DNA of 63,390 nucleotides, filler included, from Acidimicrobiia bacterium (GTDB lineage: Bacteria; Actinomycetota; Acidimicrobiia; Spongiisociales; JAHEDJ01), in assembly GCA_029210695.1 (NCBI GenBank). It is 18 parts of 18 records of this genome, joined end to end, with 100 filler letters (N's around TTAATTAATTAA, not from the genome) between each part and the next. Parts side by side here need not be neighbours in the genome. Positions count along the whole stretch, not along the records: positions 1 to 4,466 come from JARGFH010000118.1; positions 4,567 to 8,932 come from JARGFH010000119.1; positions 9,033 to 13,226 come from JARGFH010000120.1; positions 13,327 to 17,351 come from JARGFH010000121.1; positions 17,452 to 21,319 come from JARGFH010000122.1; positions 21,420 to 25,117 come from JARGFH010000123.1; positions 25,218 to 28,627 come from JARGFH010000124.1; positions 28,728 to 32,127 come from JARGFH010000125.1; 10 more parts are not named here. One strand, given 5' to 3'. Both the position numbers and the translations under genes were made by a program. The notes beneath the pieces were generated by a model that worked only from the letters and a program-made list of their open reading frames with translations, searched no databases and was not told the DNA's origin. Shown piece after piece: positions 16 to 54,550 of the stretch (position 1 is the stretch's first letter; every line of letters begins with the position of its first letter).

Positions 16-87
16 ATCGATATCGACAAATCGAGCGCACGAACGAGCATTCCGTCGAGTGTCCCCGAACGGCACTTCCGAGTGCGG
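16..87 (-). repeat. GTGCCG-family cassette-boundary repeat, copy A
   Basis: Minus strand CCGCACTCGGAAGTGCCGTTCGGGGACACTCGACGGAATGCTCGTT...GTCGATATCG, directly after the serpin stop. Confidence 0.7.
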
Positions 88-97
88 GTGGCCGGGC

Positions 98-1435
98 TTA
101 GGGGCCTGGGTTCGTGACCTGGCCAGCGAACAGGATGACGCCAGAGGGGCGATGCCGGATGAGGTAGAGGAAAGGCCGGTCAGCTTTGACGGTCAGTTCG
201 GGTTCGGGTGGACCTGATTCGTCGAATCCGAGCGCAGTGGCAGCAGCGGCAACGGTTCCCCATTCGTCGACCGTGATGTCGGCGCCATGCACGGCGCCGT
301 CGAGGAAGGCATCCGGCGTGATCCGAGGGTAGGCGCCGGGAGCAGCACCGATTTCGGTGAGCCATGCGAGTAGGTCGAGCTGGGTGGTGGACTTCCATTT
401 GGGGATGACCAGCTCGTAGGGTCCGGTGGTGAAACTGGCGTCGATCTCCTCCAGCAAGTTCTGGTCGATACGATCCCGGATCTCCTCGAACCGGCCTGGG
501 TCGGGAACGATCACCAACATCGAGAACTCACCACCTACATAGGGGATCTCAGCGCCAACGAAGCCGTCGCCTTCACCACGACGGTCGGCGAGTTCGAGCT
601 CGCGCAGATACTCCGCTTCCACAGTGGAGCCATCGAGGAGGGTGAAGGCGTCGGTAACGATTGGGTATTTACCGAAGATGGTCTGCCATTGGGCCTTGAA
701 GTAGATGGCATCCGTCAGGACCAGGACGGTCTGATCGTCGAGGAACCCTTCTGGAAGGAGTTCGGGGATCAGTCCTTCAGTCTGGTCACTTACCCACGAG
801 TTGATAATCTGGCGACTGCCGGTGGGATCACCAGCAAAATCGAGTGTTTCGGTGGTGGCCCCGTGTTCGGCAGCGAGCAAATCAACCCACGTCTGGTCAG
901 GTGTCACGTCAACCCGGGGCCAGATCCGATCGGCGACCCTGATCGTGATTTCACCCTCGGCATCAGCAGACCCGGCGATCAGCTGATCGGTGGCGTTCCA
1001 CGCTTGGTGTGCCGCGGGCCCGGCGGGCAGAGCGAACGCCTCGTCGATCGCTGTACCCGTGGTTTCGTCGGCGGCTGCGCGGGCCATCAACAAGGCGTGC
1101 CCGATGCTGGCCGGGCTGAACACCAGATTCCCATCCAGCGGCTGCGTGCGCCACAACTCGAACCCGGCGTTGTTGAACCCAGCCGTCAGGTCCGCGACGG
1201 GGGCGTCGCCAACCGGCGTCGAACGCTCTACCCCCGAACTGGGAACCAGGACAACCGGCTCACCCACGGGTTCAACGCCCCCTGCGGAGGTGGTAACCGA
1301 AGACGGTGAGACACCAGGCGCAGGACGCGTCGAATCGATTTCCCCAGGCCCCGCTCCCTCCGCGCACGCAGCGACCAACAACAACAGCGCCACCAGCGTC
1401 GCGACGGGACCTCTCATGGTGTTGAGACGCCTCAT
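98..1435 (-). CDS. Serpin family lipoprotein
   Basis: Lipobox-like VAAC; serpin motifs FSPASI, INSWVSDQTEGLI, AIYFKAQW, hinge EWGTVAAAAT, ADRPFLYLIR. Start may be 1417. Confidence 0.92.
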   Translation of the reverse strand: MRRLNTMRGPVATLVALLLLVAACAEGAGPGEIDSTRPAPGVSPSSVTTSAGGVEPVGEPVVLVPSSGVERSTPVGDAPVADLTAGFNNAGFELWRTQPLDGNLVFSPASIGHALLMARAAADETTGTAIDEAFALPAGPAAHQAWNATDQLIAGSADAEGEITIRVADRIWPRVDVTPDQTWVDLLAAEHGATTETLDFAGDPTGSRQIINSWVSDQTEGLIPELLPEGFLDDQTVLVLTDAIYFKAQWQTIFGKYPIVTDAFTLLDGSTVEAEYLRELELADRRGEGDGFVGAEIPYVGGEFSMLVIVPDPGRFEEIRDRIDQNLLEEIDASFTTGPYELVIPKWKSTTQLDLLAWLTEIGAAPGAYPRITPDAFLDGAVHGADITVDEWGTVAAAATALGFDESGPPEPELTVKADRPFLYLIRHRPSGVILFAGQVTNPGP

Positions 1436-1489
1436 CCCGCCCAAAGGTTCCCGCAAGCCACACCTCCTGGCGCCGATACAACTACGAAA

Positions 1490-1563
1490 CCACACAGACC
1501 AGCTGATACCGAGCGAGAACGCACCACATCTGAAACCACGCATAGCGGCACGTACGAGTGCGG
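1490..1563 (-). repeat. GTGCCG-family repeat, copy A2
   Basis: Minus strand CCGCACTCGTACGTGCCGCTAT...GTGCGTTCTCGCTCGGTATC, between serpin and DUF1801 genes. Confidence 0.65.
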
Positions 1564-1644
1564 CAACAGGTTTCTCAGGCGGAGGCTCCGCACCGGCTCG
1601 CAGCCGGATCGATTCAGGGTGGTCGGACCGGAGTTCCTGTTCGG

Positions 1645-2112
1645 TCAGTCGACTGCATCTGGCGGGGTCCGAGGTGGGATGTCGCTCATTCGCGGAATCG
1701 CGCCCATTGAACGTTCGACCGCTTCGACGTGGGCCACGGATTCGGTTATCAGCTCGGCGAGGACCGTGCGGTCGACGTCGCCGAGACGTTTGAGATGGAC
1801 GGTCGATTTACCAGTCGTGTGTGGGCCGAGCCGGTCAAGGATGTCGTCGAAGCCCCTTAGGCCCGACATGATGTAGAGGGTGATGCGGTCCTTCTTCGGC
1901 GAGAATCCGACGGTGAAGAAGTCGCCCTCCTGGCCGGTCTTGTACCGGTAGTGGTATTGCCCGTACCCGATGGTGTTGGCGTTCCACACCTTTGGCTCCT
2001 CGCCAGTGATGCCGGCGACAAGGACCATCAGGTCCTGGGCGTCGCGGCGGCGACCCTCGTGGGCCACGTCATCGATGATGCGTTGGGCGGCGGCGCGATC
2101 GGTGCTCCTCAT
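1645..2112 (-). CDS. DUF1801 (YdhG-like) protein
   Basis: TGEEPKVW..IGYGQYHYRY..GFSPKK..LG.HTTGKS pattern. Confidence 0.85.
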   Translation of the reverse strand: MRSTDRAAAQRIIDDVAHEGRRRDAQDLMVLVAGITGEEPKVWNANTIGYGQYHYRYKTGQEGDFFTVGFSPKKDRITLYIMSGLRGFDDILDRLGPHTTGKSTVHLKRLGDVDRTVLAELITESVAHVEAVERSMGAIPRMSDIPPRTPPDAVD

Positions 2113-2265
2113 GGGTGCACAGTACCAATCGGTCGAGGGTCTTCACCGTCCTGGAAACGGGAGCCATGTCGGGGTTGGGGAGCCCGATCCCGCAAGTGTG
2201 TGGGTCGAAGCGTTGCCGACTCGGCCGGGAAGCTCTAACCCAGAGGCGGGGGGCACTGTACGGAT

Positions 2266-2703
2266 GCACCGGTCAGCAATCGGGCGTAGAAACGAGCACC
2301 TGGCCAGACTGAGCCGCTCGGCACTTCCGGGCGCTACTGACCTGCGGGATGCTGCTCGTCGGGCCGGGCGCTCGACAACGCTCGGGGCGGTGAGCGATCT
2401 GGCGGTAGGGCATACCTAGATTCACGGCTGAACTCATCGCTTCACGCCCAGAGACTTGGACACGAGCCGCCGTCGCATCCCACATGTGGCACGTGATTGA
2501 ACGCAACTCTTCCGTGGCTGACCTCGCGACATTGCCGCTCGGTCACATCGCAACCGGCCAGGGTCAGGCGAACCTTGGACGATCGCGGCTCACGAGTACC
2601 AACCCGAAGACTGATATCGCGCGAGGCCCAGCGCCGATCACCAAATCCCGAGCAGAAACGAGCATCTGGCCGAGTGCGCGGGATCGGCACTGCTGCGCTC
2701 GGG
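2266..2703 (-). repeat. GTGCCG-family repeat, copies B (about 2266-2335) and C (about 2631-2703)
   Basis: GAAGTGCCGAGC...GTGCTCGTTTCT and CAGTGCCGATCCCGCGCACTCGGCCAGATGCTCGTTTCTGCTCGGGATTTGGTGATCGG. Confidence 0.7.
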
Positions 2704-2891
2704 TCGTCGGCCGACACAAGCCACCCACCGTGGCGAACGTCGCTTGGTCAGACGAGCCGATCTGCCGGTTCCAGAGCGCTGGTGGGCGTGCGATATCGCG
2801 CGGGAGGACTAGTGACCTGTGCGTCCGGGGAGAGAGGGGTAGAACTTGCGTTATCGCCGTTGGTTTCCCGCGGCGTGTGTATCGTTGCTCG

Positions 2892-3898: not shown

Positions 3899-3966
3899 CC
3901 ATCCCAGATCGCCGAATATGGAGTGGAAGCGCCCACTCCGCCGAGTGCCCCATATCCTCACTTCGG
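3899..3966 (-). repeat. GTGCCG-family repeat, copy D (divergent core)
   Basis: GAAGTGAGGATATGGGGCACTCGGCGGAGTGGGCGCTT...GGCGATCTGG. Confidence 0.55.
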
Positions 3967-4027
3967 TGATTGGAGAAGGGCAGCATGGAACCGTCGACCA
4001 GAGCGCAGGTTGGGGCCTTGGCAATGC

Positions 4028-6254: not shown

Positions 6255-6311
6255 AGGTTGAGGGCCTAGTGCCCTAAATGGGCGTGGGGGTTCAAGTCCC
6301 CCCTCCGACAC
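6255..6311 (+). other. att site: 3' half of tRNA-Leu(GAG)
   Basis: TTGAGGG anticodon loop, long variable arm GCCC-TAAAT-GGGC, T arm GGGGGTTCAAGTCCCCC; D-arm and 5' acceptor strand absent. Confidence 0.85.
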
Positions 6312-7941
6312 GAACCCCAAGTACATGGGGTTCTCCTGCGCCTACGTGTACCCGCCCGTCGGGGTAGTGGGTGAGGTTGACACCGAGTTCTTCGTAGATG
6401 GCCCGCTTGTCGGCCGGGTCGGCATCGGCCAGTACCGCCACGATGTCGCGTAGCTGGGCGACGAGTGCCTTGATTTCGTTCTCGGTGAGTTTGCGTGGGG
6501 TGGGTTTGCGGCCGAGTTCTCGTTCGAGGTTTCTGCGTTCTCGTTCGACTTCGGCGATCCAGGTGGCGGCGACGGTGATGTCGCTGTCGTGTTCGAGGAG
6601 TGCCCGGTACTTGGCGAGTTTGGTGTCGCATTCTTTGAGCTGGCGGCGCAGCTGAAGGATGCGACCTTGGTCGTCGTCTGGGGCGGCCCCGCTGGCGGCG
6701 GCCAGTGCCTGGGTGGTGGTATCGATGTGGTCATCGTCGAAGAGGCCGCCGATCCAGGTATCGAGTCCCGGCACGATGGCGTCCTCACGCACGTAGATGG
6801 TCTTGGCGTGTTGTTTCTCCCTCACGGCGTATTCGGTGGGGAACTTGCAGCGGTAGTACGGCTTGCCGTTGTTCCATGATCCTTGCATTCTGCGGTCACA
6901 GAGAGCGCAGCGGACCAGCCCTGAGAGCACGTAGGTGTGTTTGGTGCGATTCCGGCGGAGCGCGGCACGTTGGGAGCCCGCAAATATGTCCTGGGCCGCA
7001 TTGAAGGTCTCGACGGAGATGATGGCGGCATGGGTCGGATCCTCAGACCAGACCCATTGGCTGGGGTCGTTCCATCGCATCTTGGTGTCATGGCCGAGGG
7101 CGACGTCATTCACGTCAATGAGGATCTCGTGGCGGCCCTGGCGGTTCCATACCTGGTACCCGGTGTAACGGGGATTCTTGAGAATGGCCCGAACCGCCGA
7201 CTTCGACCAGGCGCCTCCACCGCTCGAGCGGTGACGGTTGCGAGCCGGATCATGTCCGGACGGGGAGAGGATCCCATCTGCGGTGAGTCTCTCGGCGATG
7301 GCGAACAGGCCCCGGCCGGCAAGGAACTCGGTGAAGATCCTCTGCACCACCGGACCCGCTTTGGCGTCGGGTTCGAGCCGCCGGAGCTGTTGGCCAGCGG
7401 CAGCCTTGGCAGGGTTGGGGTGCGGGCCAGCGTCGGTCAACACGTAGCCGTAGGGTGGCCTTCCGCCGAGGAATCGGCCTTCGATGGCTGCCTGGGCGGC
7501 CATCGCGGTGCGGACCCTGGTTTTGATGCGGTTGCGTTCGCCTTTGCTCATGCCACCGTACAGGTTCATGACCATTTCGTGAGCGTCCGATCCTGGGTCG
7601 ACCGCTCCGCCAACTTCAGGCACCCACAATCCGATCCCGTAGTGGACGAAGACGGGGAAGGTGAGTCCGAACTGGTTGCCATAGAACGCCCGTTGGGGTT
7701 CGCCGATCACCACACTGTCAAATCCCCGGTCCGGGTCGGCGAGAGCTTGAAGGAGTTTGGTGGCTTCTGGCCTTCGCGACCAGGGCAAGGACCGGGACTG
7801 GCCGATGTCGAAGAATTCGGTGATGATTTCGCCGCCGGCCGGGTCGATGAGTTGGCGGGATCGGGCGAGTTGCCAGTTGCGCGATGATTCGGGGTCTTGT
7901 TGGTCTTCGGTGGAGACCCTGCCGTAGAACGCGAATCGCAT
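6292..7941 (-). CDS. Large serine recombinase (integrase)
   Basis: YGRVSTEDQQ catalytic Ser, GRPPYGY, recombinase domain, Zn ribbon LSGLVRCALC, coiled coil; stop lies within the tRNA fragment. Confidence 0.95.
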   Translation of the reverse strand: MRFAFYGRVSTEDQQDPESSRNWQLARSRQLIDPAGGEIITEFFDIGQSRSLPWSRRPEATKLLQALADPDRGFDSVVIGEPQRAFYGNQFGLTFPVFVHYGIGLWVPEVGGAVDPGSDAHEMVMNLYGGMSKGERNRIKTRVRTAMAAQAAIEGRFLGGRPPYGYVLTDAGPHPNPAKAAAGQQLRRLEPDAKAGPVVQRIFTEFLAGRGLFAIAERLTADGILSPSGHDPARNRHRSSGGGAWSKSAVRAILKNPRYTGYQVWNRQGRHEILIDVNDVALGHDTKMRWNDPSQWVWSEDPTHAAIISVETFNAAQDIFAGSQRAALRRNRTKHTYVLSGLVRCALCDRRMQGSWNNGKPYYRCKFPTEYAVREKQHAKTIYVREDAIVPGLDTWIGGLFDDDHIDTTTQALAAASGAAPDDDQGRILQLRRQLKECDTKLAKYRALLEHDSDITVAATWIAEVERERRNLERELGRKPTPRKLTENEIKALVAQLRDIVAVLADADPADKRAIYEELGVNLTHYPDGRVHVGAGEPHVLGVRVGGGT

Positions 7942-9347: not shown

Positions 9348-9570
9348 CCCGCTCCTCGAAGTGCCGTTCGGGGACGGGTGGTTGTGAGGTGCGTTATGGG
9401 GTCCCCGTATCAAATGGACGAAACACAACAGTTTCGTGAGTCCTCTTCGTTACGCTGAGTGGCCGGCACCGCGCTCGCCGACGTGCCGATATTGAGCGGT
9501 TCCAGATACATGGGCGGTTTCGCTCGGGATCAGGGTGATATGCGCTATTCGGTCTGGACGTGCCGACTCT
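9348..9570 (+). repeat. GTGCCG-family repeat, copies F (core 9361), G (core 9483) and partial G2 (core 9560)
   Basis: CCGCTCCTCGAAGTGCCGTTCGGGGAC...GTGCGTTATGG; GACGTGCCGATATTGAGC...GCTCGGGATCAGGGTGATATGCG. Confidence 0.7.
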
Positions 9571-10829: not shown

Positions 10830-10991
10830 ATCTACTCTTCGCCGATAGGGACACAGACGTTACACCCCCAAAGGTCGTCACAATCAGCGATGGAAACGGT
10901 CCCCTTCCTGTACACGGGTTCACAACCGGGAGTCACCCGAGTCCTTCCACACGTCTAGCGTCGGCGCTCGCCGCGTCTTCAACCCAATCGA

Positions 10992-11055
10992 TACGTGCCG
11001 ATACTGAGCACTCGGCGGAATGTGCGTTCTTGTCCCCGATTTGGCGATATGGGCG
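10992..11055 (+). repeat. GTGCCG-family repeat, copy H
   Basis: TACGTGCCGATACTGAGCACTCGGCGGAATGTGCGTTCTTGTCCCCGATTTGGCGATATGG. Confidence 0.75.
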
Positions 11056-12696: not shown

Positions 12697-12807
12697 GCAA
12701 CTTGAACGCTACCTACGGCCGCCCGGTTCCCCAACGCATTCATCGACCATCGACCAGACCACCACCAGTGACCGCACTGAAGCGAGGCGCCGCACGCCTA
12801 CGTGCCT

Positions 12808-13226
12808 GATAGGGCTGTAGGGGCGTTGCGGGAGTTGGTTCCGTAACGTTGCAGGGGTCCCGGTGGGTGTCGCTCTCGACGTGCCTGCCGCCCGTGAGGG
12901 TTGGCTTTCGAGCGAGCTGTCGTGCTCGCCGGGATCTCTGCTGGCGGTGTGGCTCGAAACAGGCGTAGCACGCAGGACCGTATCAGGAGTGCCCACCGTC
13001 AGATCCACCGACCCCCGAACCAGAGGAGGTGTGTCATGTCGGTGATGATTGGAATCGACCCCGCGAAGGGTTCTCATGCCGCGGCGGCGGTGAACGGTAG
13101 CGAGGAGGCGGTGGCGGAGCTCGAGGTCCGTGCCAGCCGCCGTCAGACCAGCGAGCTGTTGGCCTGGGCGGAGCAGTTCCCACAGCGAAAGTGGGCAATC
13201 GAGTCCGCCAACGGGCACGGCTATCT
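12808..13226 (+). mobile_element. IS110-family element: left non-coding end and transposase 5' part (ATG 13036)
   Basis: MSVMIGIDPAKGSH...WAIE DEDD-type N-terminus, GGAGG RBS, ~230 bp non-coding leader. Confidence 0.88.
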
Positions 13227-13546: not shown

Positions 13547-13829
13547 CCGACGGCTGGAACCTAACGGTCACGCCAGTCCTAGTGGAGATCCCTCCCGGAT
13601 ACCCGACCACACCCCGGACAACATCTGCGTGACCGCCGACCTCCGCCTCGCCAACGGAGCGACACCAGCGAACACGATGGGAATCCGTGAGATAGCCGAC
13701 CGTTCGTGGCTGCAATTCTCCTATCACATCGAAGCCGCCGACTGGCGGCCGCAGCCGGATCTCTCCCAATCGGACACGTTGGTGACGTACCTGGTCGGAG
13801 CTTTACATCGCCTCGAGGAGGTGAACTGA
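13546..13829 (+). pseudogene. Prokaryotic E2/UBC (family E-like) fragment, 5' truncated and frameshifted
   Basis: PDGWN...IPPGYPTTP/PDNICV..LRLANG..W.QFS.H....WRP...L.TYL; one C missing in the C-run near 13612-13615. Confidence 0.7.
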
Positions 13830-15487
13830 TGGCTGGTCTACGATTCATCGACGACCTCGATCACCGCCGCGTGGCTCAGCACCTGTTCTCAGGGCCGGGG
13901 GAGCGGTTCGCGTTCCTGATTTGTCGCTGGCAGCCAACCACCGAAGGTCCGTCACTGGTCGTGGTGGATGCGACCCTCGTCGACCCGGCCGACGTTGCCG
14001 TCGATGATGACGGGTGGAGCATGTCCGACCGTGCCCTCGACAACGTGGTGAACACAGCGGCCACGACGGGCCTGGTGCTCGTCGAAGCCCACAATCACAG
14101 CCTCGGGCCACCGGGCTTCTCAGCGACGGATCGTGCTGGATTGGAGCCGTTCGCCAACTACGTCCTCGACTCGTTCCGTGACCGACCTTACGGCGCCACC
14201 GTCTGGGCGGACGACATGGTGTACGGGGAGTGGTTCAGCCGCGCCGGGGACAAGACCGAAACCGGCGTCATCGATCGGATCGTTCTCGCTGGTGCGACCC
14301 TTCAGGCGTTGACCGCACCCAATGCTGGCATGCGGCTCGACCAAGAGATTACCGATCGGCAACTGGCGGTCTTCGGCGTAACCGGCCAGCAAACCCTCGG
14401 GCGGCTACGCGTGGGCCTCGTCGGGCTCGGTGGCACCGGCTCCCACATGGCTCAGAATCTCGCCTACCTTGGGGTCCGAGAGTTCGTCCTCGTGGACGGT
14501 GACGCGGTTGAGGTCTCCAACCTCAACCGCCTGGTCACCGCCGAACGCGGCGACGTGGCGGCGCCGAAGGTTGTCACCGCCGAACGCACCATCCACACCA
14601 TCGCACCAGACGCGGTCGTGCAAGGCGTCGAGGCAGCGGTCAGAGCTGAAGACGACCACGTCGCACGCCGGCTCGCCGATGTGGACCTGATCATCGGCTG
14701 CGTCGACAACGACGGTCCCCGCCTACTCCTCAACCGTCTCGCCGTGGCCCACCAGATGCCCTATCTCGATGTCGCTACCGGCATCACCGTCGACGGCGGC
14801 CGAACCGTCGAAGCCGGCAGACGCGTCGCCTTCACAGCCCCCGGTGGGCCCTGTCTTGGATGCACCCACGAACTCGACGTCAACGAGGTGGGCGACTACT
14901 TCCTCACAGAGGACGAGCGCCAACGTACCCAACACCACGGTTACCTTGCCGGCGACGACACGCCAGAGCTCGGCGCCCGCGGCGGAACGATGCCGACTGT
15001 GCTCCACCAGGTCACAAGCTTGATCGTGGAACACTCCGATATCGTTGGCCTCGATAACGACTTCGGCGAGGCAACTCCCGTGGAGCTTCAGGTGCTCGCG
15101 CCCGTACGTACGCTGATCGAAAAGCTCACGATCTTGCACCATGCTGCAACGATCGGCAACCCGGCAGAACAGGCCCGGCTCGCTCGTCACTATTACGACG
15201 TCTGGTGCCTCCTCAGCGATGAAGAGACCGTGGCCGCACTATCGATCTCGCCGGCCGACGTGCTCGTCCGCGAAGTGGCGACGTTCACCGAGGCAGCGGG
15301 TCTTGAGACCACAAGGCGCCCGCGGTCGGGCTATGCAGACTCGCCGGCATTCAACGTTGATACGAACGAGGCAGTTCGCGCCGCATTCAACGAAGTGGTG
15401 ATAGATCAGCTCGTATGGCCAAGCGCGCCCAGGCCAACGTTCGAAGAGTGCTGCGCAGCAATCCACACTCGCTCGACTCTTCTCTGA
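13829..15487 (+). CDS. Chimeric JAB-like plus ThiF/E1 protein ending in an AbiEii-like C-terminal half
   Basis: E...HNH...FS..D JAB motif; GLGGTGS, DGDAVEVSNLNR, GCVD, CLGC (ThiF); from about 14965 ELGARGG, RTLIEK, ARHYYD (AbiEii). Confidence 0.75.
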   Translation: MAGLRFIDDLDHRRVAQHLFSGPGERFAFLICRWQPTTEGPSLVVVDATLVDPADVAVDDDGWSMSDRALDNVVNTAATTGLVLVEAHNHSLGPPGFSATDRAGLEPFANYVLDSFRDRPYGATVWADDMVYGEWFSRAGDKTETGVIDRIVLAGATLQALTAPNAGMRLDQEITDRQLAVFGVTGQQTLGRLRVGLVGLGGTGSHMAQNLAYLGVREFVLVDGDAVEVSNLNRLVTAERGDVAAPKVVTAERTIHTIAPDAVVQGVEAAVRAEDDHVARRLADVDLIIGCVDNDGPRLLLNRLAVAHQMPYLDVATGITVDGGRTVEAGRRVAFTAPGGPCLGCTHELDVNEVGDYFLTEDERQRTQHHGYLAGDDTPELGARGGTMPTVLHQVTSLIVEHSDIVGLDNDFGEATPVELQVLAPVRTLIEKLTILHHAATIGNPAEQARLARHYYDVWCLLSDEETVAALSISPADVLVREVATFTEAAGLETTRRPRSGYADSPAFNVDTNEAVRAAFNEVVIDQLVWPSAPRPTFEECCAAIHTRSTLL

Positions 15488-15703
15488 AGAAACATGGAAC
15501 CTGTGCAAGAGAGTGGCGTGCAACTCTCGCTGGAATCAGAGCGCGATGGCAGCGTCGATTATCGTCGCAGCACCGGTAGTGACTGTCATCACCGACGGTG
15601 ATCAACCACTCAGAGACCAACAGCAGCCACAATCCTGGATATGCATGTTCATGTTCGGATCGACATCGTCAGCCGAGTTCGAAGAGTGACGTGGGAGTAG
15701 CCG

Positions 15704-16309
15704 ATGCCTGAGGCCTACCTGGATGCACAGACCCAAGGGATCGGAGAGGTGATTCGCAGCCGAAGGCTTTTCCAGGTGCCGGATCATCAGCGAGACTTCG
15801 CTTGGACAAACGACGAAGTAGAGCAGCTCTTCAGTGACGTGGTCCGAGCTATTCAGGACACTGCCCCCGAGTACTTCCTCGGTCTCATCGTCTTAGTAGC
15901 ACCAGGCGAAGGCGATGCGTGGCAGATCCTCGATGGCCAACAGCGGTTGGCGACCACGACCATGGTGTACGCCGCCACACGAACGTGGCTTCGGGAGCGA
16001 GGCTTCGATACCGACGCCCACGACATACAGCGCGAATACATCGGCTACCGGTCGCTTGGAGAGGATGACGATCTCCCGAGGCTGACCTTGACCAGGGCAT
16101 ACGCCGAACACGGCCCATCGTCCATGGCTGCTCGGAAGAGCCCGGTAGCTCCTGCCGTTCAGGATCCTGCATGGATCCTCGTCATACCCCCACTTGACAG
16201 TGCCAGAGCACTGCGTGGCGCACCACTCCGACGAACGACCCGGCCATTGGGCGAAGCTGGAGGATCAGCCGGACTCGGGCTCGGAGTATGTCAACCCATG
16301 ATGGAGTGA
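15704..16309 (+). pseudogene. DUF262 (GmrSD-like) N-terminal fragment
   Basis: VPDHQRDFAW, YFLG, ILDGQQRL motifs; recognisable homology stops near 16095. Confidence 0.8.
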
Positions 16310-19187: not shown

Positions 19188-20406
19188 GCCCAGCGACCGA
19201 GCAACGGACCTAGCGGACGGGCCGATGGCCGGCATCCGCGTCCTCGACCTCACCCGTGTCCTTGCCGGACCGTACTGCTCGATGCTTCTGGGCGACTATG
19301 GAGCCGACGTAATCAAGATCGAGCGGCCGGGTACCGGCGACGATACCCGGAGATGGGGGCCACCGTTCGTTGGCGGCGAGAGCGTCTATTTTCTCACGGT
19401 CAACCGCAACAAGCGCAGCGTCGCCATCGACTTCGGCACCGATCAAGGTCGCGAGCTGGTTCTTGGCTTGGCCGAGTCCGCCGACGTCGTAGTTGAAAAC
19501 TTCCGCCCCGGGACGTTGGATCGATTACGGCTCGGTTACGACGATCTGCGTTCCGTCGCTCCAGGAATCGTGTATTGCTCGATGACGGGATTCGGGCTTG
19601 GAGGTCCACGCCAGTTCCAGCCGGGCTACGACGCGCTCATCATTGCTCTCGGAGGTCTGATGAGTATCACAGGCGAGCCTGCCGGAGAGCCCGTGAAGCC
19701 TGGGGTGGCGATCCTGGATGTTGCCATGGGAATCGCTGCCCAGGGAGCAATCAGCGCCGCTCTCCTGGCGAGGCACCGTACCGGACTCGGGCAGCGCATC
19801 GACCTCTCGCTGTTCGCAACGCAGATCGGGACGCTCATCAACGCCGCCACGAACTACCTCATGGCTGACGAAATCATGGGGCGCTGGGGCAGCGGGCATC
19901 CCTCAATCGTTCCGTACCAGGCCTTCGCTGCGGCCGACGGCTACATCATGATAGGCGCTCCGAATGAGCAGTTCTGGCGCAAGATGTGTGACGTTCTGGA
20001 GATGCCATCGCTGATGGATGATCCGCGCTTTCGTAGCAACGCGGATCGTGTTGCCCATCGTGACGCACTGATCGACCTCATCAGCGATCGGGTCGCTCAA
20101 AACACGGTCGAATACTGGTTGACACGGTTGGAAGACGCAGACGTCCCGGTGGCACCGATCAACGACATCTCCCAGGCGCTGGCGGATCCACAGGTGGATG
20201 CTCTTGGCCTGATTCACGAGATTGAGCATCCTACGGCAGGCCCTACGCGCCTTGTAGGTCCAATGGTTGACTTCGGTCTGACGCCTGCGTCGATACGTCG
20301 ACCACCGCCTCTTCTGGGAGAACACACCGATGAGGTGCTCGGTGGATTGCTCGGTCTCGGGCCGCAGCGCCTGCAAGAACTCAGAAACGCCTCCATCATC
20401 GCGTGA
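19180..20406 (+). CDS. CaiB/BaiF family III CoA-transferase
   Basis: GIRVLDLTRVLAGP, GADVIKIE, NRNKRS, ENFRPG, PPLLGEHT. Confidence 0.95.
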   Translation: MSEPSDRATDLADGPMAGIRVLDLTRVLAGPYCSMLLGDYGADVIKIERPGTGDDTRRWGPPFVGGESVYFLTVNRNKRSVAIDFGTDQGRELVLGLAESADVVVENFRPGTLDRLRLGYDDLRSVAPGIVYCSMTGFGLGGPRQFQPGYDALIIALGGLMSITGEPAGEPVKPGVAILDVAMGIAAQGAISAALLARHRTGLGQRIDLSLFATQIGTLINAATNYLMADEIMGRWGSGHPSIVPYQAFAAADGYIMIGAPNEQFWRKMCDVLEMPSLMDDPRFRSNADRVAHRDALIDLISDRVAQNTVEYWLTRLEDADVPVAPINDISQALADPQVDALGLIHEIEHPTAGPTRLVGPMVDFGLTPASIRRPPPLLGEHTDEVLGGLLGLGPQRLQELRNASIIA

Positions 20407-21495: not shown

Positions 21496-21910
21496 CTTCG
21501 GCCGCCGGCTCTACTACGAGAACGGTTTCGTCTCGCTCTCTGATCAGGGTTGCCTCGCCGAACTCCTCGTCGGGTAGCAGCCTGGTGGCTTCGGCTAACT
21601 CGACCAGCCCGGCCACTGGTCCGGGCAAAAGAACCCGAGCGAGCAGGATAGCTGTAACCATCACAAGAGCTGAGGTCACGGCGACTCCGGCCCAGCCCGG
21701 TCGAAGACCCAGACGGCTCCTCGCTCTAAGGTCCGAATCTGGTCTCGGGGGGTTGTCGGCGGACGCCAGCCCATCCGGCATCGAACGGTCTGTGTCAGCT
21801 GCTCCCTGCTCGGCGATGTGAGCTTCCAGACGGGCGCGGGCAGCCTGCTCCTCGCCTTTGGTGGGCTTACCGTCGAAGAGCAAGCTCAGCAGACGCTCTA
21901 TCTCATTCAT
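21496..21910 (-). pseudogene. Anti-sigma-like membrane protein, 3' truncated by IS3
   Basis: ATGA overlap with ECF sigma, ARARL motif, one TM helix. Confidence 0.65.
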
Positions 21911-22509
21911 CGCGTACTGTCTCTCTCGTGGGGACCGCTTTGCCGTTCGGGCTCAAACAGTTCTCGCAGCGCGGCCCGTGTCCGATGCAGCCGGGACTTC
22001 ACCGTTCCGAGCGGAATGCCAAGCGCCAAGGCGATCTCGCCCTGAGTGAGATCCCCCAACGCGTAGAACAGGAGGACCTGACGGTCCGATTCCCGCAGTC
22101 GCTCCAAGAAAGCGTAGAGGCCCACCTTTCGAGCTTCCTCCATAGCGTCGAGCCTCACCGCTACATCTGCTGCGAAGTCCTCCGGCCCGGTGGACGCCGG
22201 ACCCAGTCCGAGGGATCGTGACTCCAGGTAACGTCGTCGTGCTTCCATCCTTGCCAGATTGGCGGCGATCCCGAACAGCCAAGGACGCGCCGACAGATGG
22301 GACGGGTCGAAACGGTCCCGTTGGTTGAAGGCTCGGAGAAAGGTCTCCGACGACAACTCGCCACCGACCTCAGGGCCGAGACGCCGGACCAGATACCGAT
22401 GGATCGACCCGTAGTGACGATCGAAGATCACGGCAAACATCGGCGAGTCAACCAGCGAGCGTCGAATCAGGTCGGCGTCGGTCTCGTCGACGGGGTTATC
22501 CCGACTCAC
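21907..22509 (-). CDS. ECF sigma-70 factor
   Basis: FDRHY, WLFGIAAN, EIALALGIPLGTVKSRLHR. Confidence 0.92.
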   Translation of the reverse strand: MSRDNPVDETDADLIRRSLVDSPMFAVIFDRHYGSIHRYLVRRLGPEVGGELSSETFLRAFNQRDRFDPSHLSARPWLFGIAANLARMEARRRYLESRSLGLGPASTGPEDFAADVAVRLDAMEEARKVGLYAFLERLRESDRQVLLFYALGDLTQGEIALALGIPLGTVKSRLHRTRAALRELFEPERQSGPHERDSTR

Positions 22510-25602: not shown

Positions 25603-25675
25603 GCGCAGGAGGGTGCCGATACTGAGCACTTCCCGAAATGCTCGTTATGGGGCGAGAACAGGGCGATATGGGTCG
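25603..25675 (+). repeat. GTGCCG-family repeat, copy I
   Basis: GGTGCCGATACTGAGCACTTCCCGAAATGCTCGTTATGGGGCGAGAACAGGGCGATATGG. Confidence 0.75.
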
Positions 25676-25727: not shown

Positions 25728-26150
25728 ATGCCTGTTGTATCGATTCGATTCTCAGACGAGCCGTTACACCAACGACTCAAGGACAGCGCCCACCGGCGTG
25801 ACATCGGGGTCTCGACCCTGGCCGAACGGTTGATCAATGAGGGGTTGCGCATGGACGCTCACCCATTGGTGGTATTCCGAGACGGACCATCCGGTCGCCG
25901 ACCCGTCCTCGTCGGTGGACCCGAGGTAGCCGACGTCATCGGTGCCATCGTCGATGGCGATGTTCCTGCAGACCAGCGTCGATCCCGAGCCGCAGAGCTC
26001 TTGGCCGTCACAGAACCTCTGATCGATGCGGCACTGGCCTACTACGCCGAATTCACCGAAGAGATCGATGCCGACCTTGCGACCCGGGCTCAGCTCGCCG
26101 ACGATGTCGAGGCGTTGTGGCGTCGTCAACGAGCGCTGCTCGGGAGATGA
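25728..26150 (+). CDS. Antitoxin (RHH plus DUF433-like)
   Basis: VSIRF..L...L, EGLRMDAHP.V.FRDGPSGRR..L.GGP.V; overlaps the toxin gene. Confidence 0.8.
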   Translation: MPVVSIRFSDEPLHQRLKDSAHRRDIGVSTLAERLINEGLRMDAHPLVVFRDGPSGRRPVLVGGPEVADVIGAIVDGDVPADQRRSRAAELLAVTEPLIDAALAYYAEFTEEIDADLATRAQLADDVEALWRRQRALLGR

Positions 26151-26503
26151 AGCTCCTTCTCGACGAGATGCATGCCCCCAGCATTGCTGACGCCCTCACC
26201 ACACAAGGCTGGGACGTCGTCGCGGTAGCGGCTGTGGCCGCTCTGCGAGGAGCCTCGGATGCGGACCTGCTCGATCACGCCACCAGCCGCGAACGTGCCT
26301 TGGTCACAGAGAACATCGTCGACTTCTCACCGCTCGCGCTCCAATGGGCCAGTGAGGGCAGAAGCCACGCCGGGTTGATCTTCACGAATCCGAAACGGTT
26401 CAATCGGGCGTCGCTTGCCTACCCGGGGAACCTCATCGGAGCACTGGGCCGGTTCCTCGACAACCCTCCCATCGACGGCGCTTCGTGGACCTGGTGGCTG
26501 TGA
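26147..26503 (+). CDS. DUF5615 / VapC45-like PIN toxin
   Basis: MKLLLDEM, SD..LL..A, LVTEN..DF, H.GLI. Confidence 0.85.
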   Translation: MKLLLDEMHAPSIADALTTQGWDVVAVAAVAALRGASDADLLDHATSRERALVTENIVDFSPLALQWASEGRSHAGLIFTNPKRFNRASLAYPGNLIGALGRFLDNPPIDGASWTWWL

Positions 26504-28727: not shown

Positions 28728-28800
28728 CCCACGATCACCTCGGTCACGGCCGAGCGGCACCAACGCGCCCAAAAACCCCCTTGACAACCAAACAGGCATC
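28728..28800 (+). mobile_element. IS110-family right end
   Basis: CCCCCTTGACAACCAAACAGGCATC, shared with 54551-54590 on the minus strand. Confidence 0.7.
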
Positions 28801-28855
28801 GATATCGAGCACTCGGCACAATGCTCGTTATGGCGAAGTATTTGGTGATCGGCGT
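28801..28855 (+). repeat. GTGCCG-family repeat, copy L (right part only, after IS110)
   Basis: GATATCGAGCACTCGGCACAATGCTCGTTATGG...TTTGGTGATCGG. Confidence 0.75.
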
Positions 28856-28915
28856 GCTCCATCCGACGAGCTCGCCGGACACACCGAACGCTGCCTGCGG
28901 GTCGGTGTTGCCGGG

Positions 28916-29722
28916 TCAGGCGCCGGTGAGTCTGCGTGCGTGTTCCTTGCCGTATTCGACGAAGGCGATAGTGGCCTCCACGCTTCCTGGGCGTGGAGGG
29001 TCATCCCAAGGGACTGGCCGGTCAGCCCGCGCCTGCGCGATGAGATTCCGCCATGCCGGCGCGAGCTCCCCCCTTCCCCATTCGAGGGCAGCCAGCTTCG
29101 AGGTCACCTCTCCGGTCTCGAGGGTGTACAGCATGCGGCACATGGATTCCACTGCGTACCGCTGCGCCCAGATCATGTCGAAACTGGTCCAGCTCAGCAG
29201 ATCCTCAAGGAAGTTCCCGATCAGGGTGCGCATCCTGTCGCGCAGCAGGTCGGCGGGAACCTCACACGCAAAGGTCCGCGGCTCGGGCCCGATCAGCGGA
29301 ACGCTGCGCTCACGGAGTATCCATCGGGTGTCTGCGACGTTGCAGTGGGGTGACCATTGCATCTCCCGCCAGCCCCGATCCACATACAGCCACTCCCCGT
29401 CGAGCCGCTCCAGCGTCCCGAGATCTGCCTGCGGTGCGTAGCTGCCTTCCAGATTCGTCACCCAATGCCCCGGACGCGTCGGGATCTCGTCGTGCAGCCG
29501 ACGGAGGGCTCGTTCCTGCTCACCGGTGACCGGCTCCTTCGTCACAACGATGAAGTCGCAGTCGCTGGAGAGATCGCCGGCTCCGAGAGCGAACGACCCC
29601 ACGACGTAACCGCCGACGAGATCGTCGGCGAGAATCGACTGCACGCAGTCGATCAACTCCGCCAACAAGCCGTTCAACTCCGAAAAGGGCGTCGGATCCT
29701 TGGCGGATCTCGCGTTATTCAC
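28916..29722 (-). CDS. Nucleotidyltransferase with AadA C-terminal-like (DUF4111) domain
   Basis: GSFALG....SDCDFIV, CRMLYTLETG.V.SK..A. Confidence 0.85.
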   Translation of the reverse strand: MNNARSAKDPTPFSELNGLLAELIDCVQSILADDLVGGYVVGSFALGAGDLSSDCDFIVVTKEPVTGEQERALRRLHDEIPTRPGHWVTNLEGSYAPQADLGTLERLDGEWLYVDRGWREMQWSPHCNVADTRWILRERSVPLIGPEPRTFACEVPADLLRDRMRTLIGNFLEDLLSWTSFDMIWAQRYAVESMCRMLYTLETGEVTSKLAALEWGRGELAPAWRNLIAQARADRPVPWDDPPRPGSVEATIAFVEYGKEHARRLTGA

Positions 29723-29939
29723 TCAAGCCCTCCTCGGCTCCACTTGGGACCAATGATCGCATTCATCTCCTGCATGGTGTTCGGTGAGCAGCAACGTTCT
29801 CGTCGAGCATCCACGGCTTCCAGCATTCGCCCACCACAGATGCGGCAACGATGCGTTGGCGCAGGCGAACAGGCCGGGAGCTGGCACAACTCGTACGTAG
29901 GCCCGCCCCAGCGGGACCCACCTCCCCGGTCTGGGAGCG

Positions 29940-30371
29940 CTAGGTCTCGCTCGCTACCACCGGATCAGGGCTGCGCTCAGCTGGGTCCGTCCGCCAGGTC
30001 CAGGCAAGACCGATGATCGCCAGCAGGGCGAGGATCTCGACGACGAAGAACCAGATGTCGTCGAGGTCGCCCGGTGGATTGGCCACCATAGACGCGATCG
30101 CCACGACGGCAAGAGCGGCGTTGGCCCAGCGGGCTGCGGTGGAAGGCAACACTCGGTTCAACACGATCATCGAGATGAACAGGCTCAGCACGATCCCGGA
30201 TGCAAGCAGCAGTCCTTCGGCAACTTCCATCGACATGAGTTCTTCGATCCAGCCCGGACGAGCGAACTCGTGGATGTCACGGAAGAGCATGTTGAACAAG
30301 ACGAAGATCCAGAGTGAGGACAGCACTCCCCGACGGTCTGCGTTGATGCGGTTGCTGATGGTGTCCTCCAC
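29940..30371 (-). CDS. DUF6326-like four-TM membrane protein
   Basis: LSSLWIFVLFNMLFRDIHE, RWAN, AWTW. Confidence 0.75.
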   Translation of the reverse strand: MEDTISNRINADRRGVLSSLWIFVLFNMLFRDIHEFARPGWIEELMSMEVAEGLLLASGIVLSLFISMIVLNRVLPSTAARWANAALAVVAIASMVANPPGDLDDIWFFVVEILALLAIIGLAWTWRTDPAERSPDPVVASET

Positions 30372-30662
30372 GGTCGGCTCCTCCTGGGACAGATTGACAC
30401 TGTGAGTAGGTGAGACACCGTAACAAACATACGGTGTAAGTAGTTGCCGAAGGCCCGCGAAGAGACGCCTCTTGAATGGTCCTACCGACGCGGGATTACC
30501 CAACAGAGACATCTCGGAATCAGAAGCGCTCCAGTATCCAGTCGGCGATCGTCTTGGGAACCACCGGCCATCGTCTCCTCGATGAGCCCATATTCTGAAA
30601 CGGCGCCCGTCGTCGCGTTCTGGAACAGGTGATTGAGTCCGGCGAGTTCCGGCAATTCTGAA

Positions 30663-30737
30663 CCGCACCTCGAAGTGCCGTTCGGCGCTATTCGCTGTCG
30701 CGGGCGATATGGCGCGGGAACAGGGCGATCGGTGCGG
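30663..30737 (+). repeat. GTGCCG-family repeat, copy M
   Basis: CCGCACCTCGAAGTGCCGTTCGG...GGCGATATGGCGCGGGAACAGGGCGATCGG. Confidence 0.75.
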
Positions 30738-30738
30738 T

Positions 30739-31086
30739 TCAGATCTCAAGGAGCGTGGCATCGAACCAGATGTCCTCATGGCCCGGCGCGGTCAGGAACC
30801 GCCACCCAGGCGGAAGAGCGAGATACGGAATAGCCTCCGGCGCCCACTCTCCGACGTGCTCGACGTGGAGTGGCACGAAGAAATCGGGATCATCGCTGTA
30901 TTCGCCACGCCATAGATACCAACCGTTGGTGTCGCCCTCGGGAGGATGTCGAAGACCGTGCAGCGGCACGGTCTCGCTGCGCACATTGGCTGCGACACCA
31001 AGTTTCGTCCCGGCCGCCGGTGTCTCCGGGTCGGCGGCGAAGCGCCGACATACCTCAAGCTGAGTGGTTTCAGATTCCATGTTCAA
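30739..31086 (-). CDS. Imm33-like immunity protein
   Basis: GLRHPPEGDT.GWY.W.GE...DFF.PLH..H...YLALPPGWRF. Confidence 0.7.
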   Translation of the reverse strand: MNMESETTQLEVCRRFAADPETPAAGTKLGVAANVRSETVPLHGLRHPPEGDTNGWYLWRGEYSDDPDFFVPLHVEHVGEWAPEAIPYLALPPGWRFLTAPGHEDIWFDATLLEI

Positions 31087-31114: not shown

Positions 31115-31172
31115 TGCTCCTCGACGTGGTCGCGCTTGACGAGCGATATGGCACAAGATCAGGTGATCGGCT
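31115..31172 (+). repeat. GTGCCG-family repeat, copy M2 (shortened)
   Basis: TGCTCCTCGACGTGGTCG...GCGATATGGCACAAGATCAGGTGATCGG; contains the stop codon of the 31159 gene. Confidence 0.55.
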
Positions 31173-45114: not shown

Positions 45115-45625
45115 CCTGGATCCACCGCCCGGTTTGGTGTCCGGTGGGTGGGATTGATGAGGAAAATGCCCTCTGACCTGGGATAATGCGGCTTGGAAAC
45201 AGTCACAAAACCCAGATCAGAAGGGCATTTATCAGATGCGTTCATCATACGACCTTTCGCGCCTGGAAACCATCTTTGATGAGGACAACCTGGTCGCCAA
45301 TGCGGGGCTGATGGCCCCGGCCGCACTCGCGCAGAAGCTCGGCCTGGCCGAGAGCATCGACGAGCGGGTGACACTGCCGCAGGGCGCGGCGGGTCGGGCC
45401 AACTGCGGCACCAAAGCACTCACGGTGATCGGCGCGATGCTGACCGGTGGGGACTCGATCGACGACGTGGACGTGCTGCGCGCGGGTGCCGGCGGAGAGG
45501 TGTTCGATGCGATCCGCGCCCCGTCGACGATCGGGACGTGGCTGCGCAGCTTCAACTGGGCGAGCGTCCGTCAGCTCGACGCGGTCTCACGCACCGTGCT
45601 GGGCCGGGCGTGGCAGGCGGGGCTA
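45115..45625 (+). mobile_element. IS1380 left IR and transposase N-terminus (ATG 45236); other left ends at 45796-45872 and 49052-49123
   Basis: CCTGGATCCACCG IR; FDEDNLVANAGL, GGDSIDD, APSTIG..LRSF. Confidence 0.9.
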
Positions 45626-46642: not shown

Positions 46643-46769
46643 CTTCTCACTCCCAACACCAGACAACCCACCCGCACAGAGTAGGCGAGCCCAACCACCC
46701 ACATCCTCCAGTTCCGATGCAAGAACGAGCCCCTCGCCGCGGCTCCGCAACGTCGCCAACCAGCGGCTC

Positions 46770-53856: not shown

Positions 53857-53859
53857 GCG

Positions 53860-53900
53860 GACGCTGCGCCACGAACCCCGAACGGCACTGCTGCGTGCGG
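53860..53900 (-). repeat. GTGCCG-family repeat, copy N
   Basis: CCGCACGCAGCAGTGCCGTTCGGGG between the GNAT and MazF stops. Confidence 0.65.
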
Positions 53901-53910
53901 TGCGTATCGG

Positions 53911-54243
53911 TCAGTTGCCGGCGAGACCGAAGAACACAACCACTGCACGTCCGAGCCTGACCATGTCCTGGTCGGCTAGGCGGCCGATTCGTTCGCCGAG
54001 TTTGGAGCGGGGCACGGTCGTCACCTTGTCGACCATCAAGCTGCTGGCCTCTCGCAGACCGTTGTGATCGTCGGGCACGACAGGGAGCCGAATCAACGGT
54101 GCTTCGGTCGGATCAGTGGTGAAGGTACACACGGTCACCGAGTCGGTAGCGTCGAAGCGATCATCCTGGATGATGACTACCGGGCGAGGTTTGCCTTTAT
54201 ACCCACTCCCGCCTGCGGCCATCCAGATCTCTGCGCGCCTCAC
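53911..54243 (-). CDS. PemK/MazF toxin
   Basis: GKPRPVVIIQ.D, S.LMVDK.TTV, IGRL. Confidence 0.92.
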   Translation of the reverse strand: MRRAEIWMAAGGSGYKGKPRPVVIIQDDRFDATDSVTVCTFTTDPTEAPLIRLPVVPDDHNGLREASSLMVDKVTTVPRSKLGERIGRLADQDMVRLGRAVVVFFGLAGN

Positions 54244-54461
54244 TTGTCGTCAAGGCTGAGCGCGTCGATGAACGCCTGGTCGTCGGCGGCGTGCTCACTA
54301 GCTGTGACGGCGACGGATTGACGGTGCGCCTCGGCGGCGAAACCTGGAGAGCGGACATCGGACACCCACAATTGGATTGGTCGCATTCCCTGCTCCCTCA
54401 TTCGCTTCCGGTAATTTTCCACCCGCCGTGATACGGACGGGTCGTTCTGTGGTGGAGCCAT
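54240..54461 (-). CDS. DUF3018 MazE-like antitoxin
   Basis: RV..YR..MR.QG.RP.Q.WV.DVR...F..EAHRQS; GTGA overlap with the toxin. Confidence 0.88.
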   Translation of the reverse strand: MAPPQNDPSVSRRVENYRKRMREQGMRPIQLWVSDVRSPGFAAEAHRQSVAVTASEHAADDQAFIDALSLDDK

Positions 54462-54469
54462 CCACCAAT

Positions 54470-54481
54470 GTTACATGTAAC
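54470..54481. promoter_or_regulatory. Palindromic TA operator
   Basis: GTTACATGTAAC, 8 nt upstream of the antitoxin ATG. Confidence 0.6.
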
Positions 54482-54494
54482 GGCGTGGCTTCTG

Positions 54495-54550
54495 AACCCC
54501 TATCACCAGATCGAGTACATGAACGCCCATTCACCCGAGTATCAGGGATC
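54495..54550 (-). repeat. GTGCCG-family repeat, copy O (right part only, after IS110)
   Basis: GATCCCTGATACTCGGGTGAATGGGCGTTCATG...GATCTGGTGATAGG. Confidence 0.65.

Follow-up and report, generated by a model that had tools for sequence, protein, structure and literature searches.

Co-oriented arrays of a GTGCCG-core site in Acidimicrobiia suggest a gene-cassette system distinct from integrons

Introduction

Small gene modules that collect at short repeated sites are known from several bacterial recombination systems. Integrons, and clusters of attC sites lacking integron-integrases (CALIN), comprise co-oriented site arrays that separate cassettes of one or two genes, are rich in toxin–antitoxin pairs, and share cassettes between arrays and genomes. 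The pdif modules of Acinetobacter plasmids are small accessory or toxin–antitoxin modules found in varied contexts and bounded by Xer-type sites of 28 bp, which alternate in orientation and are served by the host XerC/XerD. Integrative mobile elements exploiting Xer (IMEX) and tycheposon-type islands grow as integrative elements accrete in tandem at a single att site; circles integrated by a tyrosine recombinase leave direct repeats, and both autonomous and non-autonomous members occur. Repetitive extragenic palindromes (REP), bacterial interspersed mosaic elements (BIME) and miniature inverted-repeat transposable elements (MITE) are short, abundant and intergenic. Here we describe a candidate cassette system from a 63,390-base stretch of DNA of the Acidimicrobiia bacterium assembly GCA_029210695.1 (the whole analysed stretch is hereafter the window), in which copies of a ~75-bp site with a GTGCCG core adjoin small accessory genes. 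The literature that we searched, with most subscription journals outside its coverage, yielded no description of such arrays. The available text of two surveys reports complete integrons to be absent from Actinobacteria (PMC4889954, PMC9024848), and the available text of another study describes integrons as virtually absent in abundant soil Actinomycetota metagenome-assembled genomes (MAGs), raising overlooked sites of unknown type as a possibility (PMC13323075).

The best reading of the sequence comparisons is that these sites would belong to a site-specific cassette system that is distinct from integrons and functionally similar to integrons or CALIN. The first-pass annotation of the window had proposed such a system, and the proposal is supported by array polarity, junctions at the core, the lack of an attC signature and a recombinase found in other genomes. 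We consider it fairly probable that the window comprises fragments of several mobile-cassette arrays in which crossover occurs inside GTGCCG, with a Xer-like enzyme as the likely catalyst. Unlike in pdif modules, the sites are ~75 bp long, co-oriented and chromosomal, and have a dedicated Xer-like paralogue. Unlike IMEX or tycheposon accretions, these arrays are built of much smaller units (median 0.8 kb), lie at a site other than a tRNA or dif end, and occur many times per genome. REP, BIME and MITE differ in that the copies described here are non-palindromic and non-dispersed, occur in co-oriented arrays, and have cargo that is exchanged at the core.

Results and Discussion

A directional site with a GTGCCG core

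The window joins 18 contigs of 2.7–4.4 kb each, longest first, with spacers of the form N44-TTAATTAATTAA-N44; because the contigs are separate, strands can be compared only inside one contig. Its G+C content is ~62%. The bare hexamer GTGCCG occurs 71 times, where 65.3 ± 8.3 would be expected, and counts of at least 71 arise in 31 of 100 shuffles; it was therefore rejected as an enriched word, and the signal resides in the long motif only. Thirteen copies in the window are alignable across ~65 nt, and a degenerate pattern derived from them gives five matches in the window and none in each of 100 shuffles. A 67-nt hidden Markov model (HMM), iterated on the window and on loci fetched from other genomes, scores the 13 copies at 18.7–56.8 bits, which distinguishes them from shuffled sequence (top score in 20 shuffled windows, 11.2 bits). 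An HMM trained on 126 copies from other genomes, leaving the window out, recovers 12 of the 13 at E ≤ 0.01.

The site is a real, directional element of ~75 bp: a weak left arm is followed by the GTGCCG core, ~45 nt of variable body and, last, a conserved 3' box (GGTGATCGG). Conservation extends from about −13 to +61 relative to the core, and fades within a few bases of the edges of the 67-nt model. The core is invariant and is followed by A/T-T-C; the body falls into sub-types and includes an internal box similar to the core, while the 3' box contains an inverted copy of the core's GCCGATC. Overall, site copies are ~60% identical to one another. The inverted copy was considered as a stem and rejected, given that core sub-type changes (A to T or C after GTGCCG) are uncompensated in the copies inspected; for this reason, the core and 3' box are treated as two protein-binding boxes. 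The three sub-motifs of the site are putative recombinase binding sites.

Polar arrays across Acidimicrobiia

A single pattern scan of a one-genome-per-species collection, with matches cut as loci of up to 20 kb, returned 47 loci (designated L001 onward), of which 42 contain true copies according to the HMM. These derive from 30 species-level MAGs, the titles of which in nearly all cases name Acidimicrobiia, Acidimicrobiaceae or Actinomycetota; the remaining five loci (Pirellulaceae, Idiomarina, Planctomicrobium, Pricia and Leptolyngbya) are chance matches by HMM scoring. On long contigs the copies form arrays of 3–9, with ends that fall inside the 20-kb loci, and several genomes have more than one array. 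On one 4.16-Mb contig, two arrays lie 800 kb apart (L029 and L035) and account for all pattern matches, which is not the distribution of a dispersed REP- or MITE-like repeat.

Without the duplicate locus L014 there are 139 copies. Where a contig or locus has two or more copies (31 cases, 124 copies), a single copy in all is on the minority strand. Neighbors share their orientation in 92 of 93 adjacent pairs (binomial p 9.5e-27), with a median spacing of 788 bp (interquartile range 672–1858). Thus, the clustering and co-orientation put forward in the first-pass annotation are found in bounded arrays, and the copies are not spread uniformly in both orientations as REP-like elements would be; within the window, orientation is likewise unmixed in every contig. 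Sites and neighboring genes point independently of each other: the upstream gene has the same direction as the site in 63 cases and the opposite direction in 56, and the downstream gene in 56 and 62, respectively. PLSDB plasmids contain no match to any site copy. One full site copy of 58 bits (L038 1837–1902) lies on a 2-kb contig binned as Desulfuromonadales, which is probably a mis-binned Acidimicrobiia fragment.

Cassette exchange at the core

When all loci and the window were compared with one another, cassettes with 95–100% identity were found in different arrays and genomes. A deaminase cassette is shared at 99.7–100% identity by L027 and L040, which are contigs of one MAG, and its L011 counterpart is 95% identical. 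Beside it in L027 is an alpha/beta-hydrolase cassette, which in L011 lies 8 kb away. A Phd/ParE pair is present in L006, L027 and L036. The window contains a complete cassette (28800–30680, +) that runs from a site body through genes for an AadA-like nucleotidyltransferase (28916–29722, −; Pfam) and a DUF6326 protein (within 29940–30779, −; Pfam) to a left arm and the next core. This cassette is 98–99% identical to L011 8164–10050 and L030 8160–10050, and has three different downstream neighbors in the window, L011 and L030, with the end of an insertion sequence (IS) upstream in the window. Its homology stops at HMM position 15–17 of the following core. In the junction views, identity begins at the G of GTGCCG and stops at the last G.

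Junctions were located by anchored change-point mapping of 21 matches of ≥300 bp and ≥88% identity. Strict megablast was rejected for this purpose, as it fragmented the matches and placed 86 of 100 end positions (25 high-scoring segment pairs, two sequences per end) outside the repeats. Of 20 usable junctions, 18 are inside a site, and 13 of these are at HMM positions 4–17, in GTGCCG or a few bases from it, in agreement with the earlier expectation that homologous cargo would change neighbors at GTGCC. The 3' junctions fall at position 15 (the last core base) in five of seven cases, with the others at 17 and −18; among the 11 5' junctions, four are at 10–11, two at 4–6 and one at 14 (an IS junction). 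The pattern indicates that downstream DNA usually brings the body and 3' box with it, and upstream DNA the left arm. The same cargo retains the same site body and relative orientation across genomes. Site identity is 59.5% inside an array and 60.4% between genomes; this lack of greater likeness within arrays argues against local duplication and homologous recombination.

Two contigs of one MAG (L001 1467–8319 and L037 3253–10054) have a 6.8-kb flank in common (88% identity). This flank stops at the terminal site's core, past which the two arrays are different; the contigs represent either paralogous array loci or two strains in one bin.

A Xer-like recombinase next to the core

Tyrosine recombinases are the most recurrent protein family across the loci. 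One sub-family, of ~307 aa with Phage_int_SAM_1 and Phage_integrase domains (Pfam) and 80–88% identity across MAGs, is represented by full genes in L015 and L036, an internally deleted gene in L036, an N-terminal piece in L047 and a 50-aa remnant in L002. In four of these five copies a core is located 107–139 bp upstream of the recombinase start codon on the opposite strand, an arrangement found for 28 of 753 called genes (p ~9e-6). The flank between gene and core shows conservation as far as GTGCCG, beyond which the site bodies diverge, as would be expected of an attI-like junction. At the XerD catalytic positions (R-K-H-R-H-Y), the aligned residues are conserved.

The protein has the catalytic domain and SAM-like N-terminal domain of the Xer-type tyrosine recombinase superfamily. 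It is not a housekeeping XerC or XerD by the equivalog models (128–134 bits versus cut-offs of 330–335), nor an IntI-type integrase: the integron integrase model TIGR02249 gives 68–69 bits versus a cut-off of 265 and matches at model positions 237–301 only, and PRK15417 gives 43–44 bits versus 435. The closest solved chain is XerD (1a0p), and IntI4 (2a3v) aligns over the C-terminal 70 residues only. Metagenomes contain >120 clusters of this recombinase at 70–97% identity, most of them from short contigs and annotated as XerD or tyrosine recombinase, and relatives on actinobacterial plasmids (PLSDB) have ≤46% identity. Judging from its position and sequence, the Xer-like recombinase probably moves the cassettes.

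In L015 and L036 the DNA behind the recombinase gene is still cassette-like, and all of its sites are degenerate; the gene therefore seems to occupy a cassette-like unit within the array and not a fixed end. The candidate recombinase is absent from the window, in line with the first-pass annotation, which had suggested looking for a recombinase conserved at array ends; a conserved tyrosine recombinase does occur beside the core in other genomes, inside the arrays. Two large serine recombinases in the window (6292–7941, −; 55048–56472, +; Resolvase, Recombinase and Zn_ribbon_recom domains) were rejected as candidates because neither adjoins a significant site copy; serine recombinases are not found among the top 25 protein clusters common to the loci.

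Relation to integrons

The arrays resemble integrons in being co-oriented with a fixed exchange point (92/93 pairs; 13/18 junctions at positions 4–17), in crossover at a short conserved core on one edge of the site, in a divergent Xer-family recombinase close to a site with a conserved, attI-like outer flank, and in extra arrays without recombinase in the same genome. Unlike in integrons, the site has neither a folded hairpin nor R''/R' boxes, and it is sequence (~60% identity), not structure, that is conserved; the recombinase looks to be of plain Xer type, is inside the arrays and is seemingly itself a cassette; and cassette genes are not co-oriented with the array (63/56 upstream and 56/62 downstream, by crude gene calls). 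Since cargo genes face both ways, individual cassettes probably have promoters of their own.

None of 135 copies combines the attC boxes RYYYAAC and GTTRRRY, with both strands checked. Single-strand folding is barely beyond that of shuffled sequences (mean z −0.42 for the top and −0.41 for the bottom strand, n = 70), with 4–6% of copies below −2. The absence of the box pair and of a long hairpin agrees with the first-pass annotation. A variable outer stem, seen in the copy at 30675, was rejected as a general feature, in that the two flanks of one copy pair no better with each other than with those of other copies (5.13 versus 5.14). Mutual information over 135 aligned copies gives no nested long-range helix, and the top pairs are neighboring sub-type columns. 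Rfam has no match at the sites of the window at gathering score, and none at E ≤ 1 over L027 6000–11000.

Other elements that target the core

Five right ends of IS110-family elements stop at one point of the core, leaving CGAT and the site body: two in the window, and three in L011 (~19763–19835), L024 (1749–2972) and L028 (3667–5197). The insertion is at one fixed core point and in a single orientation. Of the two in the window, the first (28728–28799, +) is at a contig start, abuts the core remnant and aligns with the four other IS ends; the second (54552–54835, −) also abuts the core remnant, reaches the contig end, and has 74–76% identity to DNA 3' of the IS110 transposase genes of L024 and L028. 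The left part of such an element (12808–13226, +) follows a half-site (12790–12807, +; left arm and GTGCC, read from sequence) that it interrupts, and reaches the contig end. This left part has a 76% match to the region upstream of the L031 IS110 transposase gene, and includes a DEDD_Tnp_IS110 N-terminus (12901–13224, E 9.8e-6; under gathering score owing to the truncated gene). IS110 insertion in the core explains three contig ends of the window. The IS junctions delete part of the core, whereas cassette junctions keep it whole. The right ends have a TTGACA hexamer ~15–25 nt from the junction. IS1111-attC elements, which the available text of PMC11187229 describes as an IS110/IS1111-family group that targets integron attC sites, are similar in being DEDD-transposase elements with fixed position and orientation in a cassette site, although the target here is the GTGCCG core, not attC.

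A unit of two adjacent tyrosine-recombinase genes (429 aa and ~400 aa) was identified in L040 (10829–12747), L046 (1–2546) and L028 (9575–10336). The homology between L040 and L046 begins at the site core, consistent with another element with the same target.

Genes for a TrwC-type relaxase and a 380-aa integrase adjoin arrays in L044 (5304–9888), L002 (1787–4812) and L047 (14986–18779), accompanied in L047 by an HTH_17 excisionase-like gene; the L044 relaxase gene stops 91 bp ahead of a site copy. Such units may be mobilizable integrative elements, with an array either inside or next to them. In three MAGs, the same ribbon-helix-helix (RHH) antitoxin pair is directly 5' of the first site of the array, at 82–91% identity (L007 8368–9293, L027 5367–6291 and L019 10290–10816); this shared block begins at a terminator-like hairpin rather than at a site.

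Proposed mechanism

We propose that cassettes would recombine site-specifically with crossover within GTGCCG. An excised circle would carry one rebuilt whole site, as crossover leaves the body and 3' box joined to downstream DNA and the left arm joined to upstream DNA. The circle could integrate into any resident site, generating direct repeats, and directly repeated sites could in turn excise; since circle integration yields direct repeats, sites would have a uniform direction whatever the direction of the genes. The ~307-aa Xer-like recombinase, transcribed away from the core, would be the best candidate catalyst, presumably acting on double-stranded substrates. It would ride in its own cassette-like unit, which would leave most cassettes non-autonomous and dependent on movement in trans. 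The sharp 3' junction beside variable sequence would fit a single strand-pair exchange and, more speculatively, one such exchange at the edge of the heterologous spacer might be followed by replication, as in integrons. IS110-family elements target the same core and break the assembly there.

In its widest form, the proposal is that Acidimicrobiia have their own cassette-capture system, independent of integrons, with a cassette-borne Xer-like recombinase, circles of 0.4–3 kb, several polar arrays and exchange across species, which fills the role of integrons; this is plausible, and we hold it only tentatively.

Several observations weigh against the proposed reading. The left arm is weakly conserved, which is atypical of a simple tyrosine-recombinase core site. 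The Xer-like gene is in only four of the 42 true-copy loci (three MAGs), is inside arrays and not strictly at one end, and is degraded in three of five copies, with two of the five in L036; it could be another core-targeting mobile element, like IS110 and the L040/L046 unit. Five of the 18 in-site junctions are off the core, at position 45 (two, one event), 57–58 (two) and −18 (one), and three further pairs have, by eye, junctions inside a site of the position 45 or 3'-box-start class; these need either the 3' box as a second exchange point or patch conversion of the body. With 3.1 kb common to L011 and L030, the junction pairs are not all independent. For the loci, genes were called from our own crude open reading frame (ORF) picks, with 33 of 126 copies overlapping a called ORF by >30 nt, and the whole case is built on the comparison of MAG assemblies.

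If the sites are real cassette sites and the Xer-like gene is itself a core-targeting element, the mover would be a different enzyme with its gene elsewhere, for example an IS110-type DEDD recombinase acting in trans, the host XerC/D or some other tyrosine recombinase. We regard this as unlikely, albeit a serious alternative: the gene is flanked by cassettes on both sides (L015, L036), is often degraded and missing from most array loci, and at least two other kinds of element (IS110-family; the two-recombinase unit of L040/L046) insert at the core. Nevertheless, the family is highly conserved (70–97% identity over >120 clusters) and has a fixed position and orientation by the core and conserved flank in four of five copies, and the IS110 junctions remove part of the core, which cassette junctions do not. 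That the copies are instead REP- or MITE-like selfish repeats between genes, with swaps by homologous recombination or gene conversion, would account for short, intergenic, degenerate and numerous copies and for the junctions at positions 45 and 57–58. It is improbable in view of the restriction of copies to arrays with 92/93 neighbors co-oriented, the absence of a palindrome or hairpin, the gathering of 13/18 junctions at or near one 6-bp core, and cargo that holds the same site body and relative orientation between genomes; mutual identity of ~60% is also too low for homologous recombination.

A canonical integron or CALIN with divergent attC sites would fit the layout of co-oriented sites and one- or two-gene cassettes with many toxin–antitoxin pairs, as well as a divergent Xer-family recombinase beside a site and IS110/IS1111-type insertions into it. 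This explanation is very improbable given a recombinase that scores far below the TIGR02249 cut-off (68–69 versus 265 bits) and better on XerD/XerC models (128–134 bits), the RYYYAAC and GTTRRRY boxes together in 0/135 copies on either strand, and a mean fold z of −0.4 with 4–6% of copies below −2. Nor were copy-specific complementary flanks found; cargo direction is ~50/50, and crossover is at the 5' end of the conserved element (in our orientation) without an R'/R'' pair. It is harder still to credit a transcript-level element (promoter, terminator, leader or small RNA of accessory genes): the site does sit at gene boundaries, and several genes end alongside it, but its direction is independent of the flanking genes, which makes a promoter, terminator or leader unlikely; moreover, no stable fold is predicted, Rfam is empty at gathering score for the window sites and at E ≤ 1 across one array, and array-level polarity would be unexplained.

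If a Xer-like recombinase does move these cassettes, the cassette-array architecture would have arisen more than once, with a different site and a different Xer-type enzyme, and an integron-like role would be filled in a phylum reported, in the available text of the surveys, to be without complete integrons (PMC4889954, PMC9024848). The system would provide a handle on accessory-gene exchange (toxin–antitoxin pairs, immunity proteins, small enzymes and AadA-like nucleotidyltransferases) in a major soil and water class, would account for the break-up of these regions in short-read assemblies, and would add a new pair of site-specific recombinase and site for high-GC hosts. The site model and junction rule make the idea checkable in existing read sets.

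Site copies and cargo of the window

The first-pass annotation had listed 19 cores, of which 13 are significant by HMM: those at 71, 1547, 2320, 2686, ~3955, 9483, 10995, 25613, 27610, 28801, 30675, ~31125 (3' half only) and 54548. Four others (9361, 26533, 53884 and 12802) are weak or partial and match the strand of their own contig, and those at 5082 (3.1 bits) and 9560 (no HMM match) are unsupported. Its cargo assignments are confirmed by Pfam, run on our own ORF picks, for the serpin, DUF1801, PIN-like, ERCC4, AadA-like, Imm33 and MazEF genes, to which DUF7711 and DUF6326 are added; they are not for the "lipoproteins", nor for an extracytoplasmic function (ECF)/anti-sigma factor pair beside a copy, since the sole sigma-70/ECF match (21907–22509) is on contig 6, which is without a site copy.

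A minus-strand copy at 21–84 (core 70–75; 51.6 bits, E 3.4e-15; 50.3 bits with the leave-window-out HMM) is just 3' of a serpin gene (longest ORF 98–1543, −; Pfam Serpin E 5e-66), the true start of which is probably downstream of the next copy (1495–1560, −; core 1546–1551; 21.6 bits, E 7.6e-6; leave-window-out 18.5 bits). A DUF1801 protein follows (1645–2112, −; Pfam E 1e-10), then a copy at 2271–2331 (−; core 2319–2324; 22.4 bits, E 4.3e-6) that is the sole leave-window-out miss at E ≤ 0.01, one at 2634–2697 (−; core 2685–2690; 56.8 bits; leave-window-out 55.0 bits), and one with a variant core at 3905–3969 (−; 41.2 bits; leave-window-out 40.0 bits).

On the plus strand, a weak, decayed copy (9352–9397; 11.1 bits, E 0.015, HMM positions 1–45) retains the left arm, the core (9361–9366) and a partial body without the 3' box. 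It precedes copies at 9474–9542 (+; core 9483–9488; 27.7 bits; leave-window-out 21.4 bits) and 10991–11051 (+; core 10995–11000; 52.0 bits; leave-window-out 52.4 bits). Further along, a copy at 25613–25670 (+; core 25613–25618; 31.3 bits; leave-window-out 30.7 bits) is followed by a PIN-like/DUF5615 protein gene (26117–26503, +; Pfam DUF5615 E 2.8e-14, PIN_10) with a possible partner on the opposite strand (25764–26129). Next are a weak, decayed copy (26525–26577, +; core 26533–26538; 7.4 bits, E 0.21; seed HMM E 9e-4), an ERCC4-domain nuclease gene (26561–27448, −; Pfam E 7e-15) and a copy at 27603–27678 (+; core 27610–27615; 19.0 bits, E 5e-5; leave-window-out 14.0 bits). Compared with the other 12 seed copies in the alignment, this last copy has a 9-nt insertion in its body.

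The AadA-like cassette begins with an IS-junction copy lacking the first four core bases (28800–28853, +; 38.5 bits, HMM positions 14–67) and is followed by the copy at 30666–30732 (+; core 30675–30680; 31.9 bits; leave-window-out 28.6 bits). An Imm33-like immunity protein (30739–31086, −; Pfam E 4e-39) is encoded between that copy and one scored in its 3' half (31138–31171, +; degenerate core ~31125; 18.7 bits, HMM positions 34–67; leave-window-out 18.0 bits). On the minus strand, a MazE/MazF toxin–antitoxin pair (53911–54461, −; Pfam PemK_toxin E 9e-19, MazE-like E 5e-23) lies between a weak partial copy, which is not significant alone (53876–53897, −; left arm and core 53883–53888; 5.9 bits, HMM positions 1–22), and an IS-junction copy without the first core bases (54499–54551, −; 29.9 bits, HMM positions 14–66; leave-window-out 27.4 bits). 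Contigs 4–6, 9–14 and 16–18 have no site copy by HMM at E ≤ 1e-3, and the best score in copy-free contigs is a partial match of 10.8 bits (46708–46739).

Other features of the window

Other Pfam content of the window includes the two large serine recombinases, transposases and the IS110-type N-terminus at a contig end. A contig without site copies encodes a 593-aa fusion of a ThiF-family E1-like domain and an AbiEii-type nucleotidyltransferase, followed by a protein with a GmrSD N-terminal domain (13706–16309), and resembles defence-type gene content. Across the window, Rfam identifies two tRNAs and the actinobacterial sRNA Ms_IGR-7, the latter at 45116–45234 (−) with 45.8 bits against a gathering score of 45.

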